Source: an uncultured Phycisphaerales bacterium (GTDB lineage: Bacteria; Planctomycetota; Phycisphaerae; Tepidisphaerales; Tepidisphaeraceae). Taken from it: a stretch of 64,000 nucleotides of DNA. A program made the translations under genes and the position numbers. The notes beneath the pieces are model-generated. The model saw nothing but the letters and a program-made list of their open reading frames with translations. It made no database searches and was not told the DNA's origin. Below are positions 22,991-28,611 of the stretch, piece after piece. Every line of letters begins with the position of its first letter. Position 1 is the stretch's first letter. The stretch spans positions 2,400,001 to 2,464,000 of the forward strand of contig CAVWVQ010000003.1 in NCBI GenBank assembly GCA_963758525.1, written 5' to 3'.

Positions 22991-23261
22991 GCGAGCTCCT
23001 CTCGCAAAATTATATCACAAAATCATGCCGCTGAGCATTCTTCAGGCGGCGGGTCGTCGGGCAGATGACCACGGCGCGCGCCCGCACGCCGCGTGAGTTG
23101 CCCGTGCCAGAAGAAAAATGCCCCAAGCACGCAAAGTGACAGGCCTCCGGTGTTGCAACTGTTTCAATGCCGGCTTTTGAAGCATCCCGCGGCATACCAG
23201 CCAAAAAAGCGTTCCAATCACAAGTTTAGAATTTGGCGGGGAATACGAATCGAACATGTTT

Positions 23262-23277
23262 TGGCACGTCGTGCGCT
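23262..23277 (+). promoter_or_regulatory. Putative sigma54 -24/-12 promoter
   Basis: TGGCACGTCGTGCGCT = GG-N10-GC, about 40 nt upstream of the hydrolase start. Confidence 0.6.
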
Positions 23278-23317
23278 ATGCGTTCGCACGAGCTTTTTGA
23301 GTCAAGAGAGGAGCGTC

Positions 23318-23997
23318 ATGGACAAGAACGCCACGGTAACCGTGCGGGCCGAGCCCTATGAGTATGAATTTGTGCCGGCCAAGTGCGCGCTGCTGATCAT
23401 CGACATGCAGCGAGACTTCCTGGAGCCGGGGGGATTTGGAGAAATGCTGGGGAATGACGTTTCCCAATTGCGGCGAACGATCGAGCCAAACAAAAAATTG
23501 CTGGCGGCTTGGCGCAAGGCGGGGCTTCAAGTCATGCACACACGTGAAGGGCATCGGCCGGATCTCACGGATCTGCCGCCGGCCAAGAAGGTGCGCGGCG
23601 CAGCGCGACTTGCATAGGAGACGCGGGTCCGATGGGACGCATCCTCGTCCGCGGCGAGGCGGGACACGACATTATCCCTGAACTTTACCCGCTCCCGACT
23701 GAGCCGGTGATCGACAAGCCTGGCAAGGGGGCGTTCTTCGCCACCGACTTGCAGGCGATTCTCAATAACCGCGGAATAACCCATCTGATCGTAACTGGTG
23801 TCACGACTGAGGTCTGCGTCAACACCACCGTTCGCGAGGCCAATGATCGCGGCTATGAATGTCTGATCCCCGAGGATTGCGTCGGTTCTTACTTTCCGCA
23901 GTTTCAGGAAATGGGGCTCAAGATGATCAAAGCCCAGGGCGGGATATTCGGGTGGGTCACCAACTCTTCTCAGATTCTCGATGCCATCAACAGTTAG
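23318..23997 (+). CDS. trtA: Isochorismatase-family cysteine hydrolase, triuret hydrolase-like (frameshift near 23605)
   Basis: [84 protein letters not shown]. These are TrtA-type residues rather than BiuH-type (GYVD, GITTDVC). Confidence 0.78.
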
Positions 23998-24114
23998 ACG
24001 ACCATGCACGACCGAGTGTCATCCTCTCAACATTTAGCGGCTGTCCCATGGGCAGCATGTCGTTCGGAATGGACGCGTACTCGCGCCCATTCATCCATTT
24101 AAAAGGAACTTGTC

Positions 24115-25746
24115 ATGAGCACGCTCGAAGCTTCTCCATCATCAGACTTTAAGCCCAAGTTATGGGTGCCGGGAGACTGGAACGCGTTCTTCGGATTTGG
24201 AACCAACATCCTGGTCAACCTGCTGACGCTCAGCGCCCTGCTGCTGTTCGTGCTGCAGATGCCGCCGGACATGGTGTTCAAACGCATTCTTCCCGCCGCG
24301 GGCATGATGATGTGCATGAGCACGATGTATTACGCCTGGCTGGCGTATCGTCTGGCGAAAAAGACAGGGCGATCGGATGTGTGCGCGCTCCCCTCCGGCA
24401 TCAGCGTGCCGCACATGTTCATTGTGACATTCGTCATCATGCTTCCCGTGAAGCTTGCTACAGGCGATCCCGTGAAGGGATGGCAGGCGGGTCTTACCTG
24501 GGTGTTCATCCAGAGCTTCGTGCTGATGCTCGGCGGCTACATCGCGCCGATCGTCCGAAAGATCACGCCGAAGGCTGCTCTGCTCGGCGCGCTGGCGGGC
24601 GTATCCATCACCTTCATTTCGATGAAGCCCGCGCTTGAAATGTATATGACGCCGGTGATTGGCGTCGTCTGTTTTTCGATCATTCTCGTGAGCTGGTTCG
24701 GTGGCGTGAAGTTTGGCGGGATCCCCGCCGGGCTGGTTGCCATCGCGGGCGGTATGCTGCTGGCGTGGGGATCGACGCTTCTGCCCGAGGCGTATCACAT
24801 CGGCGGGATGAGCGCCGAAGGCCTCAAGGCGTCGTTCAAGACCTTCGGATTCCATGGACCGCTGCCGACTGTTGGCTTGGTGCTGGGTGGATTGCACTGG
24901 AGCTTCCTCAAGACGATTCTCGTCACCGCTATTCCCTTCGGCATTTATGACCTGGTGGAAGCGATGGACAACGTCGTCAGCGCTGGCGCTGCCGGCGATG
25001 AATATCCGACCACCCGCGTGCTGACCGCCGACGGCGTGGTCAGCCTGATCGGCTGCCTGATGGGCAACCCATACATCAACGCCGTTTACATCGGCCATCC
25101 CGGCTGGAAAGCGATGGGCGGCCGCATCGGCTATTCCGCGGCCACGGGGGTCATGGTCATCATCCTCTCCTGGTTCGGGATCATCTCGCTGATGACCGCC
25201 ATCATTCCGGTCGTCGCGATTTCGCCGATCCTGCTCTACATCGGTATGCTCATTGGCTCGCAAGCCTTCCAGGAAAATCCGCGACGCCACGCTCCGGCAG
25301 TCGTTGCGGCCCTGGTTCCCTCCATCGCGGCGTGGGGCAAGCTGATGATTGATAACTCGCTGGGCGCGGTGGCGGGCATCCACAGCGTAACTCCAGAGAT
25401 GATCGCCTCAATGGCCCAGACCGGCGTGCTTTACAAAGGGCTCAGCGTGCTCGGGGGCGGCTCGATCCTGGCTGGTGTGGTGCTCGGCGCGATGGTCACC
25501 TTCATCATCGAGCGCGAATTCCTCAAGTCGGCCGGATTCGCGGCAGCAGGCGCCGTCCTCAGCTTCCTCGGACTCATGCACGGGGAAGCTGTCGGACTCG
25601 GGCAGTCTCCGACGGTGGTGGCGGCATATCTGATCGTCAGTGGCGTGCTGCTGGGCTGCCACATGTTCGCGGATGTGCCGGCCGTCTCTCCCGCGGAAGA
25701 AGAAGAGGAACAGGCCGGCGAAGGGGAGCTCGTGCCGGCGACGTAA
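24115..25746 (+). CDS. NCS2/AzgA-like nucleobase-type permease
   Basis: Polytopic membrane protein with GDWNAFFGFG, ALPSGISVPH, P.AALLGALAG, YDLVEAMDNV.SA.AAGD.Y, VYIGHPGWKAMGGR.GYS. Confidence 0.88.
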   Translation: MSTLEASPSSDFKPKLWVPGDWNAFFGFGTNILVNLLTLSALLLFVLQMPPDMVFKRILPAAGMMMCMSTMYYAWLAYRLAKKTGRSDVCALPSGISVPHMFIVTFVIMLPVKLATGDPVKGWQAGLTWVFIQSFVLMLGGYIAPIVRKITPKAALLGALAGVSITFISMKPALEMYMTPVIGVVCFSIILVSWFGGVKFGGIPAGLVAIAGGMLLAWGSTLLPEAYHIGGMSAEGLKASFKTFGFHGPLPTVGLVLGGLHWSFLKTILVTAIPFGIYDLVEAMDNVVSAGAAGDEYPTTRVLTADGVVSLIGCLMGNPYINAVYIGHPGWKAMGGRIGYSAATGVMVIILSWFGIISLMTAIIPVVAISPILLYIGMLIGSQAFQENPRRHAPAVVAALVPSIAAWGKLMIDNSLGAVAGIHSVTPEMIASMAQTGVLYKGLSVLGGGSILAGVVLGAMVTFIIEREFLKSAGFAAAGAVLSFLGLMHGEAVGLGQSPTVVAAYLIVSGVLLGCHMFADVPAVSPAEEEEEQAGEGELVPAT

Positions 25747-25865: not shown

Positions 25866-26285
25866 TCATGGTTTGGCTGAGAGATCGAAGCTCCCTGCCG
25901 GCACGTTGCCCGAGAGCAGGAACACCTGCACCATCGTGCCGCTGGTGAAGACCTGAACGACCGCGCCGGACGCGGGGTCCACTTCCGCGGCCGCCTCGCG
26001 CACGTCCATCCCGGTAATCCGTCTGATTTCTTCGCGCAGCGTTGCCGACGCGCTCAGAAATAACTGCCGATGAAACTCCTGCACCTTGGCTGCGCCATCC
26101 GCGCTCTGCGCCATCGCCTGTTCGGCCGGAGACAACGCGCCGTGCAGCGTGACCACCAGCGTATCCCCGCTGAGCACAACGCTGACCGATTTAGGCTCGT
26201 GGCCGGTCCGCGCCTGCTGGAACGCGGTTGCGGCCTGGGCAATTTGCTCTGCCATTGTTTGTTTGGAATGCTGCGTCACATTCAA
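25866..26285 (-). CDS. DUF2294 (MpsC-like) protein
   Basis: MAEQIAQAATAFQQARTGHEPKSVSVVLSGDTLVVTLHGALSPAE..EFHRQLF..IRRITG..GTMVQVFLL. Confidence 0.85.
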   Translation of the reverse strand: MNVTQHSKQTMAEQIAQAATAFQQARTGHEPKSVSVVLSGDTLVVTLHGALSPAEQAMAQSADGAAKVQEFHRQLFLSASATLREEIRRITGMDVREAAAEVDPASGAVVQVFTSGTMVQVFLLSGNVPAGSFDLSAKP

Positions 26286-26306
26286 ACCCCGTCTTCGCGA
26301 AGTGCG

Positions 26307-26420
26307 AAAAAAAACCGACGTGCTTCAACACCGCTGAGGTGCTCAATCACGCCGGATTACTCTGCAACAAGCCCCCCGACTGCGCGGGTTGCCTTTTATT
26401 TAGTCGTCCGACGACTGTAG
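26307..26420 (-). ncRNA. Candidate cis-regulatory leader RNA (attenuator/riboswitch) with intrinsic terminator
   Basis: On the minus strand: hairpin AGUCGU-cgg-ACGACU, stem GCAAC-CC..GG-..GUUGC, then terminator CCGGCGUG..CACC-ucagc-GGUG..CACGUCGG-U8 about 20 nt before the DUF2294 start. Confidence 0.6.
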
Positions 26421-26507
26421 ATATTGCCCATTTGGCGGGCCTTTTCAGGTCGGCCTGCTTGTAACCCTACCCCTGTAACTCTGGAATAGCAATAAGTAAT
26501 ATAGCAG

Positions 26508-26888
26508 CTATCTTCGTTTTGCTTCACGGAAGACAGGCAATCCAGCCAGAGTGAACAAAACGACCTCCTCGCCGGTCACGGTGCTGATGTCGTGATGCAG
26601 ACTCATCGATTTATTGCCGGTGATGCTCTCCACCATCGCCTCCATGGTGGGCCGTGCGATTTCGATCAACTGGCTGCGCACCTGCTTCAGCAGATCTCTG
26701 CCTTTCTCGGGCGGGAGCGTTTTCACCAGGTGCTGCTCCGCGGCGGTCAGAACGCCGGTCAGTCGGACGACAATCAGGTTATCGATCAGGTGGGCGCGAA
26801 CGTCCTTGGGGCCTCGCCCCATGTATTCCTGTTCAAAACGGCTCATGCCCTCTGCAATAGCGCTCTCGATTTCGCCCTGAGTCTTCAT
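26508..26888 (-). CDS. DUF2294 (MpsC-like) protein
   Basis: MKTQGEIESAIAEGMSRFEQEYMGRGPKDVRAHL..VRLTGVLTAAEQHL..GRDLLKQVR..SLHHDISTVTGEEVVLFTL. Confidence 0.9.
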   Translation of the reverse strand: MKTQGEIESAIAEGMSRFEQEYMGRGPKDVRAHLIDNLIVVRLTGVLTAAEQHLVKTLPPEKGRDLLKQVRSQLIEIARPTMEAMVESITGNKSMSLHHDISTVTGEEVVLFTLAGLPVFREAKRR

Positions 26889-27009: not shown

Positions 27010-28611
27010 TCAGCTCAAATGCCGCAATTGCCGCTTGGGAAGTCGACCGACTGGCGTCGAGCGGCGGGCGGATATCGCAGCCTCCGGCAACCAGGGCCGG
27101 AGAAAATCGGGGCAGTCGCTTCGGCCGCCACGCTGGTAGTCGTTCCAAAGGGTCTGCGCAATCAGGGCCGGATCGAGATGCGCTTCGTTGCGCAGATAAG
27201 TGGCCACGGACTCAGCAAGATGTTGCAGGGAAATGCCATGCTGGCGGCCGAACTTCCGGGAGAGCCAGTCGCTGAAGTTGAGAAAATGGTGGAAGGGAGA
27301 GCCGCTGGTCCAGAGGAGCGGCGTGGTGTCGATGAAGTTGCCGCTGTTGGCAACCAGGTCCCAATAGCGCGAGAACCGGCGGAGGCGCTGCATGGTCGGG
27401 AAGTCGATGCTCGCGGTTTGCAGGATTTCATAGGGGGGAGTCGGACTGTAGACCATGCCCCACTGGGCATCGTGACGCACGATCGGGGTGCCGCGGAGGC
27501 GCTTCAGCAGGCCGACCTGGATCTCGTGGGGGGCGAGGCGGATCAGTCGATCGAAGCCGACGCCGAAGCTTTCGAGGTCTTCGCCGGGAAGGCCGACGAT
27601 CAGATCGGCGTGGATGTAGACGCCGGTTTCCTTGCGAAGAAAACGCAGGTTCTCTTCGACTTTGGCGTTGTCCTGACGGCGGCTGATTCTTGCCGCGACG
27701 TCGTCATTGAATGTCTGAATTCCCACTTCGAACTGTAGCGCGCCGCGCGGGAACCGTGCGATCGGCTCTCGCAACGCGCTGGGCAGGCGATCGGGGATCA
27801 TCTCGAAGTGCAGAAACAAGCCGGGCTCGTAACGCTCGTGAAAGAATTCCAGAATCGCGCGGCCAATCGAGAGATTGAGGTTGAACGTGCGGTCGACGAA
27901 TTTGAAGCGGCGGAGTCCGCGATCGAGCAGGCGCTGCATCTGCGCCAGGAACAAGTCAACTGGCACGTTCCGCACGGGAACGTCGAGCGAGGAGAGACAG
28001 AACTCGCAGCGAAACGGGCAGCCGCGCGAGGCTTCGACGTAGACCACGCGATGAGCCAGGTCCTGTTCGTCGTACAAGTCGTACGGCAGGGCGAGCTGCG
28101 TAAACTGCGGGAGCGAGGCCGCTATGATTTTGCGCTCGGGGCGCTCGCCATCGAGCAGTCGCTGACAGAGTTCCGCGAACGCGAGGTCCGCTTCGCCGGT
28201 GACGACGTAATCGGCAAGGCGGACAATTTCCTGCTGATCCGTTTCGTGGCTGACTTCCGGCCCGCCAAGAACGACGAGCACGTCGGGGCGGATACGTTTC
28301 AGATCGGCCACTAGCTGCGTGGCCGGGGCGACGTTCCAGATGTAGACGCCGATTCCCACGACTTTCGGATCGAACGCGAGAATTTTTTCGAGGATGTCGA
28401 CCGACCGCTGGCTGACGTCAAACTCAGCGAGCGACGCCCGTGCGCGCAGCGGGCCAAGGTTGGCCAGCAAATATCGCAAGCCGAACGCGGCATGAGCGTA
28501 CTTGGCGTTGAGGGTGGTGAGGACGATGTCCCGTTGACTGCAATCGCCGTCCATCCCCGTTTTTTGAGATGACTGTTCGCAATGGGGAGTTGTCGCGAGT
28601 ATGTCCGGCAC
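27010..28611 (-). CDS. B12-binding radical SAM protein (DUF4080-type)
   Basis: [37 protein letters not shown] (CxxxCxxC), [18 protein letters not shown]. Confidence 0.92.

Follow-up and report, generated by a model that had tools for sequence, protein, structure and literature searches.

The window, the whole stretch of 64,000 nt that was analysed, belongs to an uncultured Phycisphaerales bacterium and carries a leader RNA of about 110 nt (26413–26307, minus strand), which sits between two mpsC (DUF2294) genes. The upstream gene, mpsC type A (26508–26888, minus strand), encodes a canonical DUF2294/MpsC protein of 126 aa with a PF10057 score of 122.9 bits and is the candidate trans-acting regulator; its ATG start agrees with that of the database protein P0002. 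The first gene behind the attenuator, mpsC type B (25866–26279, minus strand), encodes a divergent paralog scoring 79.5 bits. Both proteins score above the PF10057 cut-off of 23, and PF10057 was the only Pfam family found in either of them. Judging from the N-termini of homologs, the type B ORF is more likely to start at GTG 26279 or ATG 26255 than at TTG 26285.

Directly upstream of mpsC-A, a gene for a B12-binding radical SAM protein with DUF4080 was located at 27010–28611 on the minus strand, and B12 radical SAM genes are elsewhere the first downstream gene of three RNA copies. On the plus strand (23093–25746), an isochorismatase-family cysteine hydrolase gene lies in two frames (23093–23617 and 23632–23997), both halves of which match PF00857, followed by a gene for a 543-aa membrane permease with no Pfam match. 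The frameshift may be an assembly error, and we presume that the two genes resemble a biuret hydrolase/NCS2-type permease pair.

The 5ʹ part of the leader RNA is an unbranched antiterminator rod of about 64 nt (26350–26413, minus strand), which is composed of short helices and four internal loops and has a variable apical loop; 93.7% of its alignment cells were paired, while slid controls for the rod pairing reached 26–45%. Its most conserved part is the base, where 26411–26402 pairs with 26361–26352 around a 3 × 3 purine-rich loop, and the unpaired purines at the base are near-invariant. The intrinsic terminator (26307–26355, minus strand; 94% of cells paired) consists of a hairpin at 26355–26315 and a U8 tract at 26314–26307, and its 5ʹ arm overlaps the rod by 4–6 nt. 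A terminator hairpin with U8 before the ORF, as well as mutually exclusive antiterminator and terminator folds, had been proposed in the sequence-only reading; the former was found in the sequence and the latter is supported across homologs. The seven-base complement that it had drawn between 26413–26407 and 26356–26350 is present, but the seventh pair, A26407–U26356, is specific to the window copy: it carries U at 26356, a position occupied by G in 98% of 147 homologs. Other details were corrected. The A-rich stretch taken for a linker is paired and forms part of the continuous rod (26413–26350), and instead of a central stem joining 26392–26388 to 26368–26364, both the minimum free energy (MFE) fold and the family pair 26394–26391 with 26372–26369 and 26388–26385 with 26377–26374.

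The hairpin (i) described earlier was present at 26416–26402 (26402–26416, minus strand) in the MFE fold, but its presence varies: 75% of cells were paired (24 rows), and at least five of its six pairs formed in 79 of 147 copies. We predict that it is an optional anti-antiterminator, which in the OFF fold would sequester the rod's 5ʹ strand and is compatible with the terminator. The 5ʹ extension of the leader (26426–26457, minus strand) has two small hairpins, is not conserved in sequence and folds within chance (z −1.2). The leader region folded better than shuffled sequences (z −2.86; 2 of 200).

The initial RNA family contained 24 copies from loci around the MpsC genes of relatives, including two rows from the unpublished genome G004. 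Changes on both sides were seen in 10 of the 21 rod pairs, and double changes in 12 of the 18 terminator pairs; 0 of 500 shuffles scored as well as the rod. Upon searching GTDB with a degenerate pattern, we found at least 136 loci; by title, the 136 pattern matches listed came from planctomycetes (132), deltaproteobacterium (2), Victivallales (1), and Alcaligenaceae (1). The covariation set comprised 147 non-redundant copies, with the G004 rows left out. In this set, 11 of the 12 top-scoring column pairs were predicted pairs; no single pair reached E < 0.05 against a rough home-made tree-based null (best 0.15), and no long-range covarying contact stood out. The rod base does not vary within the clade, to which the search pattern contributes in part, and the support for its base pairing comes from a hand-picked cross-clade alignment of 19 rows. 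In that alignment, the two basal G-C pairs of the rod were invariant (19/19), the middle pair of the second basal helix was C-G in 8 rows and U-A in 7, and the base of the terminator covaried across clades, with 94.7% of cells paired. A hairpin without homologs or covariation had been the counter-case raised earlier, and what we found were conserved homologs and covarying helices.

No Rfam 15 family reached the gathering score in the 64,000-nt window, where only chance-level matches appeared at E ≤ 10, in agreement with the earlier reading, which did not recognise a described riboswitch class; at six loci with a divergent RNA form, only a tRNA was matched. The literature search yielded no description of the RNA, with some motif-discovery supplements (PMC11109978, PMC5737381) and subscription papers outside its scope, so that a prior listing is possible; the accessible main text of PMC11109978 contained no MpsC terms. 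We regard the leader RNA as a new attenuator family, of a kind already known, with a strong candidate for its protein partner.

Upstream of the RNA, a promoter-like site was predicted at 26464–26492 on the minus strand, with a −35 element at 26492–26487, a 17-nt spacer and a −10 element at 26469–26464. A strict sigma-70 scan gave no promoter at the window locus; the looser pattern was chosen post hoc after viewing upstream sequences, with shuffles and the downstream region as controls. This motif occurred within 130 nt upstream of 46 of the 88 copies, against a mean of 3.2 and a maximum of 9 in shuffles; on the downstream side it was seen at 1 copy of the 88, against 1.8 in shuffles. Promoter-to-rod distances fell into two classes, 11–33 nt and 43–67 nt, and longer leaders often opened with an extra hairpin of variable sequence. 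An upstream gene's terminator followed by a promoter for the downstream gene, the other layout considered earlier, is at odds with a promoter-like motif lying upstream of the RNA.

In the predicted folds, the rod base was part of the nascent-RNA MFE structure in 146 of 147 copies, and the terminator fold had the lower energy in all 147 (median 9.0 kcal/mol, range 2.1–13.2; window copy 4.2), indicating that read-through likely needs a stabiliser. With the promoter-like motif upstream and the terminator favoured, the RNA is predicted to be a leader that is OFF by default. The most conserved RNA surface exists only in the predicted ON fold.

We listed 120 MpsC homologs, 37 of type A and 83 of type B, which are related at the profile level (A/B profile match 98.3%). 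The position of the two types relative to the RNA was assessed in 93 copies from 80 pattern loci with flanks, among the matches listed; 47 of the 93 had some MpsC in the locus. Genes for MpsC-A within 500 nt were divergent in 24 cases, upstream on the same strand in 4 and downstream in 0, while MpsC-B genes were directly downstream in sense in 19 cases and otherwise placed in 1 (split genes counted twice). When metagenome loci were picked by MpsC-A alone, the RNA was found within 500 nt in 65 of 80, and in 38 of the 43 with enough flank; 62 RNA copies were divergent from mpsC-A, 15 lay behind the gene, and none had mpsC-A as its downstream gene. With type A beside the RNA and type B downstream of it, A resembles a regulator next to its site and B resembles a target. 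The same gene geometry would be expected from a factor that makes an RNA ligand or from a DNA-binding activator.

Residues R25, K68, R71, D100, and E107 were kept in all 14 rows of type A and lone MpsC proteins and in 0 of 7 type B rows, and type A proteins have a conserved H/D/S/T/G/E patch (residues 98–107), which is absent from type B; the MpsC of Acetoanaerobium noterae lacks H98. The AF2 model of MpsC-A (pLDDT 92) shows a helix, two strands, two helices, and two strands. There was no PDB sequence match and no Foldseek match at E ≤ 0.001 for this fold, a wide structure search gave no clear solved fold (best Z 6.3) with neither HutP nor CAT among the matches listed, and comparison with Atlas gave no usable match. 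RbfA (KH type II/RbfA-like) aligned to the model with Z 5.4 and rmsd 3.9 over 88 residues, which is within the range of common arrangements. At another locus (L187, 2978–3903), a divergent RNA form lies between mpsC and a degenerate mpsC paralog without K68 and R71; this layout matches that of the window, through ancestry or convergence, with only 28% identity to type A.

Among 61 related genomes, 13 had both the RNA and MpsC (including the source genome and G004), 2 had MpsC only, 3 had the RNA only, and 43 had neither; these counts are inflated by kinship and horizontally moved stress islands, and as the RNA model R1 was trained on MpsC-adjacent copies in 12 of the 13 double-positive genomes, those cells are circular and the negatives are the informative ones. 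The distribution is patchy, and both same-genus relatives lack the RNA and MpsC. The two MpsC-only genomes carry a divergent RNA form, and the 4 copies in the three RNA-only genomes each lack core pairing or the U tract. Of the MpsC-linked copies, 63 of 76 passed the same three strict tests, most misses being wobble changes. In 150 genomes of the phylum outside the R1 training, R1 matched 3, all among the 13 that were MpsC-positive; a broader model, R2, matched 12, namely 11 with MpsC, a circular result for the 9 of them included in its training, and 1 weak match among the 137 without MpsC.

The divergent RNA form was located directly behind the gene in 10 of 12 lone-mpsC planctomycete loci, often with a clear −35/−10 pair; R1 found five of these ten at E < 0.01 and three at E 0.035–0.6, and two were picked by eye. 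The order mpsC then RNA was also observed in two Bacillota, with E 1.3e-8 in A. noterae and E 1e-5 in Anoxybacillus amylolyticus. Several observations count against antitermination by MpsC-A. Its model gives no structural sign of RNA binding, the window copy departs from the family at 26356, MpsC occurs without the RNA in G070, G123, a Staphylococcus pettenkoferi plasmid locus and a Staphylococcus-type mpsABC locus, and in the 1.5-Mb partial genome G207 we found 3 copies of the RNA but no match to MpsC. Upstream of a lone mpsC (L191), R1 gave a weak match (E 0.022) that R2 failed to confirm, and it was discarded. The leader of the S. pettenkoferi plasmid mpsA (ndhF) gene (L196, 1451–1491) has a terminator-like hairpin and U tract directly ahead of the start codon, with no match to the RNA core. 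In a 595-kb record titled 'uncultured phage' (L299, 4001–4371), mpsC was matched in two pieces (57% identity), and no RNA lay close by.

To describe the genes behind the RNA, 91 first downstream ORFs were taken from the pattern loci, of which 15 evident MpsC-B genes were not rescanned and 76 were scanned. A Pfam family was assigned to 43 of the 76, including YflT, HSP20, BON, CsbD, ferritin, DUF1328, transglycosylase-associated and PRC-barrel proteins, and further DUF3309, DUF3185, CsrA, SPFH, LemA, PAS kinases, and others. Another 65 ORFs contributed 16 MpsC genes and similar genes. We take these downstream families in the clade of the window to be general-stress genes. The sequence-only reading had expected dabAB, SulP and carbonic anhydrase genes downstream; none of DabA, SbtA, SulP, and carbonic anhydrase was present among the 76 and 65 first downstream ORFs scanned in the clade. 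DabA was present in 3 of the 61 related genomes, none of which had MpsC or the RNA, and mpsAB/dabAB were not found in the source genome.

The targets of the divergent form were of another kind. At its 12 loci, PEP carboxykinase (PEPCK) genes were downstream in 5 (one after a degenerate mpsC) and DUF4914 genes in 2; in A. amylolyticus it precedes SbtA (by annotation) and in A. noterae an oxalate/formate- or lactate-type MFS transporter, and the other targets were an operon with a gamma-carbonic-anhydrase-like gene, NuoE/F-like genes, and one unassigned gene. Compared with the targets in the clade, these indicate that the CO2 theme belongs to the divergent form and not to the clade of the window. 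The CO2/bicarbonate link suggested earlier thus applies to the divergent form in other lineages, and the Na+ sensing suggested with it is without support. The DUF4914 genes (L181, 1004–2914; L185, 1649–3682) occupy the position of the PEP carboxykinase gene in sister loci, a hint that their function is related to it.

The source genome (6.5 Mb, 91% complete) has 3 MpsC genes and 4 RNA copies: the window copy, two divergent copies, and one that is terminator-less. The two divergent copies (L032, 4014–9466; G000:C3 ~1.518–1.523 Mb) flank a response-regulator gene, each preceding a PAS histidine kinase gene, about 3.5 kb from the third mpsC, which is of type A and lies before a TonB-dependent receptor gene; at this locus the RNA switch may feed a two-component cascade. 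The remaining copy (L033 ~2860–2967; G000:C5 280860–280966) keeps the rod, has lost the 3ʹ arm of the terminator and the U tract, and lies upstream of a cation ATPase-like gene, which has possibly been left always on by a rearrangement.

The sequence-only reading had offered two kinds of mechanism, a ligand-sensing RNA and a protein-dependent attenuator bound by the upstream DUF2294 paralog. The second fits better, and the first retains a small share of probability. We propose, with moderate confidence, that MpsC-A is an RNA-binding antiterminator acting on the leader. Transcription is predicted to start about 45 nt upstream of the rod, and the rod would fold first during transcription. Unaided, the 3ʹ arm of the terminator would displace 4–6 basal rod pairs and the polymerase would stop at the U tract, while active MpsC-A would hold the conserved basal internal loop and allow read-through. 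The outputs in the clade, as observed from gene content, are mpsC-B together with stress and signalling genes, which may be co-regulated as one regulon. MpsC-B might conceivably serve as a non-binding feedback dampener. As to the signal, the older arrangement of mpsC, RNA, and PEPCK or SbtA faintly suggests that CO2/bicarbonate or pH status is the most likely one.

The proposed switch resembles the RAT/CAT systems (BglG/SacY/LicT), in which, as far as the accessible text of PMC5393181 and PMC12591593 describes them, an unbranched looped antiterminator hairpin overlaps at its 3ʹ end a stronger intrinsic terminator, the default state is OFF, and the regulator gene adjoins its targets. The likeness is an analogy only and the sequences are unrelated: the RAT overlap with the terminator is given there as 6–10 nt, compared to 4–6 nt here, and RAT/CAT systems are described as serving sugar uptake, whereas the MpsC-linked RNA precedes stress or CO2-related genes. 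The MpsC-linked rod differs further in its length of about 64 nt, its four internal loops and the lack of an Rfam match, and the flanking MpsC proteins have PF10057 only, without a CAT (PF03123) or PRD domain. Bacillus subtilis hutP–hutH, in the account of PMC12591593 accessible to us, similarly has a gene for a small stand-alone alpha/beta regulator followed by a terminator; HutP recognises NAG repeats in single-stranded form and makes the terminator less stable, whereas the conserved part of the MpsC-linked RNA is a paired rod. Unlike hutP, the MpsC-linked RNA has its own promoter-like site, and neither flanking protein had a Pfam HutP match.

The Na+-I riboswitch (DUF1646, RF03071) shares with our RNA an ON switch acting against an intrinsic terminator, and some of its targets handle oxaloacetate, according to the accessible text of PMC9337991. 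It is described there as two hairpins, P1 and P2, with a passive linker and a conserved P2 loop, in contrast to the single rod and variable apical loop of the MpsC-linked RNA. A variant of this class was considered and rejected: RF03071 matched 0 of the 61 genomes at E ≤ 0.1 with a positive Lactococcus lactis control, and the published 66 kefB sequence, as given in the accessible part of PMC9337991, is unlike the leader RNA. For MpsC/YbcI (PF10057) of the Staphylococcus mpsABC locus, the available text of PMC6689103 gives no assigned function, describes the protein as dispensable for MpsAB transport and reports no growth defect of an S. aureus ΔmpsC strain. The family is the same; the source genome differs in having no mpsAB/dabAB and two paralog types, and the Staphylococcus loci examined are without the RNA. 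The S. aureus ΔmpsC phenotype therefore tells no more than that MpsC need not be accompanied by the RNA.

Among the alternatives to antitermination by MpsC-A, a free ON riboswitch deserves the most weight, unlikely as we hold it to be. An ion or metabolite would bind the internal loops, and MpsC-A would be no more than a neighbour inherited alongside, perhaps activating a shared promoter region by binding DNA. Near-invariant unpaired purines, as at the rod base, and a terminator that is OFF by default are what an ON riboswitch typically shows, many copies per genome precede functionally related genes, and MpsC occurs without the RNA; moreover, divergent gene geometry is typical of DNA-binding regulators. 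This explanation is weakened by the near-confinement of the RNA to MpsC genomes and the decay of copies where MpsC is missing. An unbranched rod without a covarying long-range contact offers little pocket, and the difference in outputs between clades (stress genes versus PEPCK/SbtA) is poorly explained by a single metabolite.

We also considered a broader and rather unlikely scenario, in which MpsC-A would make or sense a previously undescribed, CO2/bicarbonate-linked signal with the RNA as its dedicated receiver. An old carbon-fixing/bicarbonate module, of Bacillota and some planctomycetes, would then have been expanded into a general-stress master switch of soil planctomycetes that acts by antitermination rather than through an alternative sigma factor, with the degenerate paralog providing feedback. 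Quite improbable, in our view, is a riboswitch whose signal molecule MpsC-A itself makes or modifies; MpsC-B would then be a paralog that is inactive or works in the opposite sense. Such a riboswitch would account no less well than direct binding for the co-occurrence, for the decay where MpsC is missing and for the position of mpsC-A upstream. The patch at residues 98–107 is conserved in type A and missing in type B, and second-messenger riboswitches typically control stress regulons. Against it, no enzyme fold or family match beyond PF10057 was found; H98 is not kept in A. noterae, and a 126-aa protein with many conserved Arg/Lys residues fits nucleic-acid binding at least as well.

Opposite polarity is very doubtful. 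Here the rod would be kinetically stable and the leader ON by default, with MpsC promoting termination as a repressor when CO2 is plentiful. The rod as the nascent MFE in 146 of 147 copies would suit such a repressor, as would two findings in the accessible text of PMC6689103, the normal growth of S. aureus ΔmpsC in air and a 1.7–2.5-fold decrease of mpsA mRNA in 5% CO2; but the terminator is the more stable fold in each of the 147 copies, with no more than 4–6 pairs to displace, the conserved surface exists in the ON fold only, and both Staphylococcus loci examined lack the RNA, so the phenotype may not bear on it. Finally, it is hardly credible that the element does no more than terminate the upstream mpsC constitutively, or is a DNA repeat without a switching role: the window hairpin does follow mpsC-A on the same strand with a strong U tract, but 62 of 77 MpsC-A-adjacent copies point away from mpsC-A and are unable to terminate it, the promoter-like motif lies upstream of the RNA and not after it, and conservation and covariation extend over the 60 nt that precede the terminator.

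Antitermination by MpsC-A, the reading we prefer, would give a first testable function to the widespread orphan family MpsC/YbcI/DUF2294, which is now named after a transporter that does not need MpsC. In its accessible text, a September 2026 preprint (10.64898/2026.09.08.750065) calls the regulation of the bicarbonate-supply genes of B. subtilis still to be explored. The mpsC–RNA–sbtA locus of A. amylolyticus, in a cultured named strain, makes the idea directly testable. With this RNA, transcription attenuators gain a new family that occurs in at least two phyla, and its targets suggest that RNA antitermination can run a regulon of the general-stress type.
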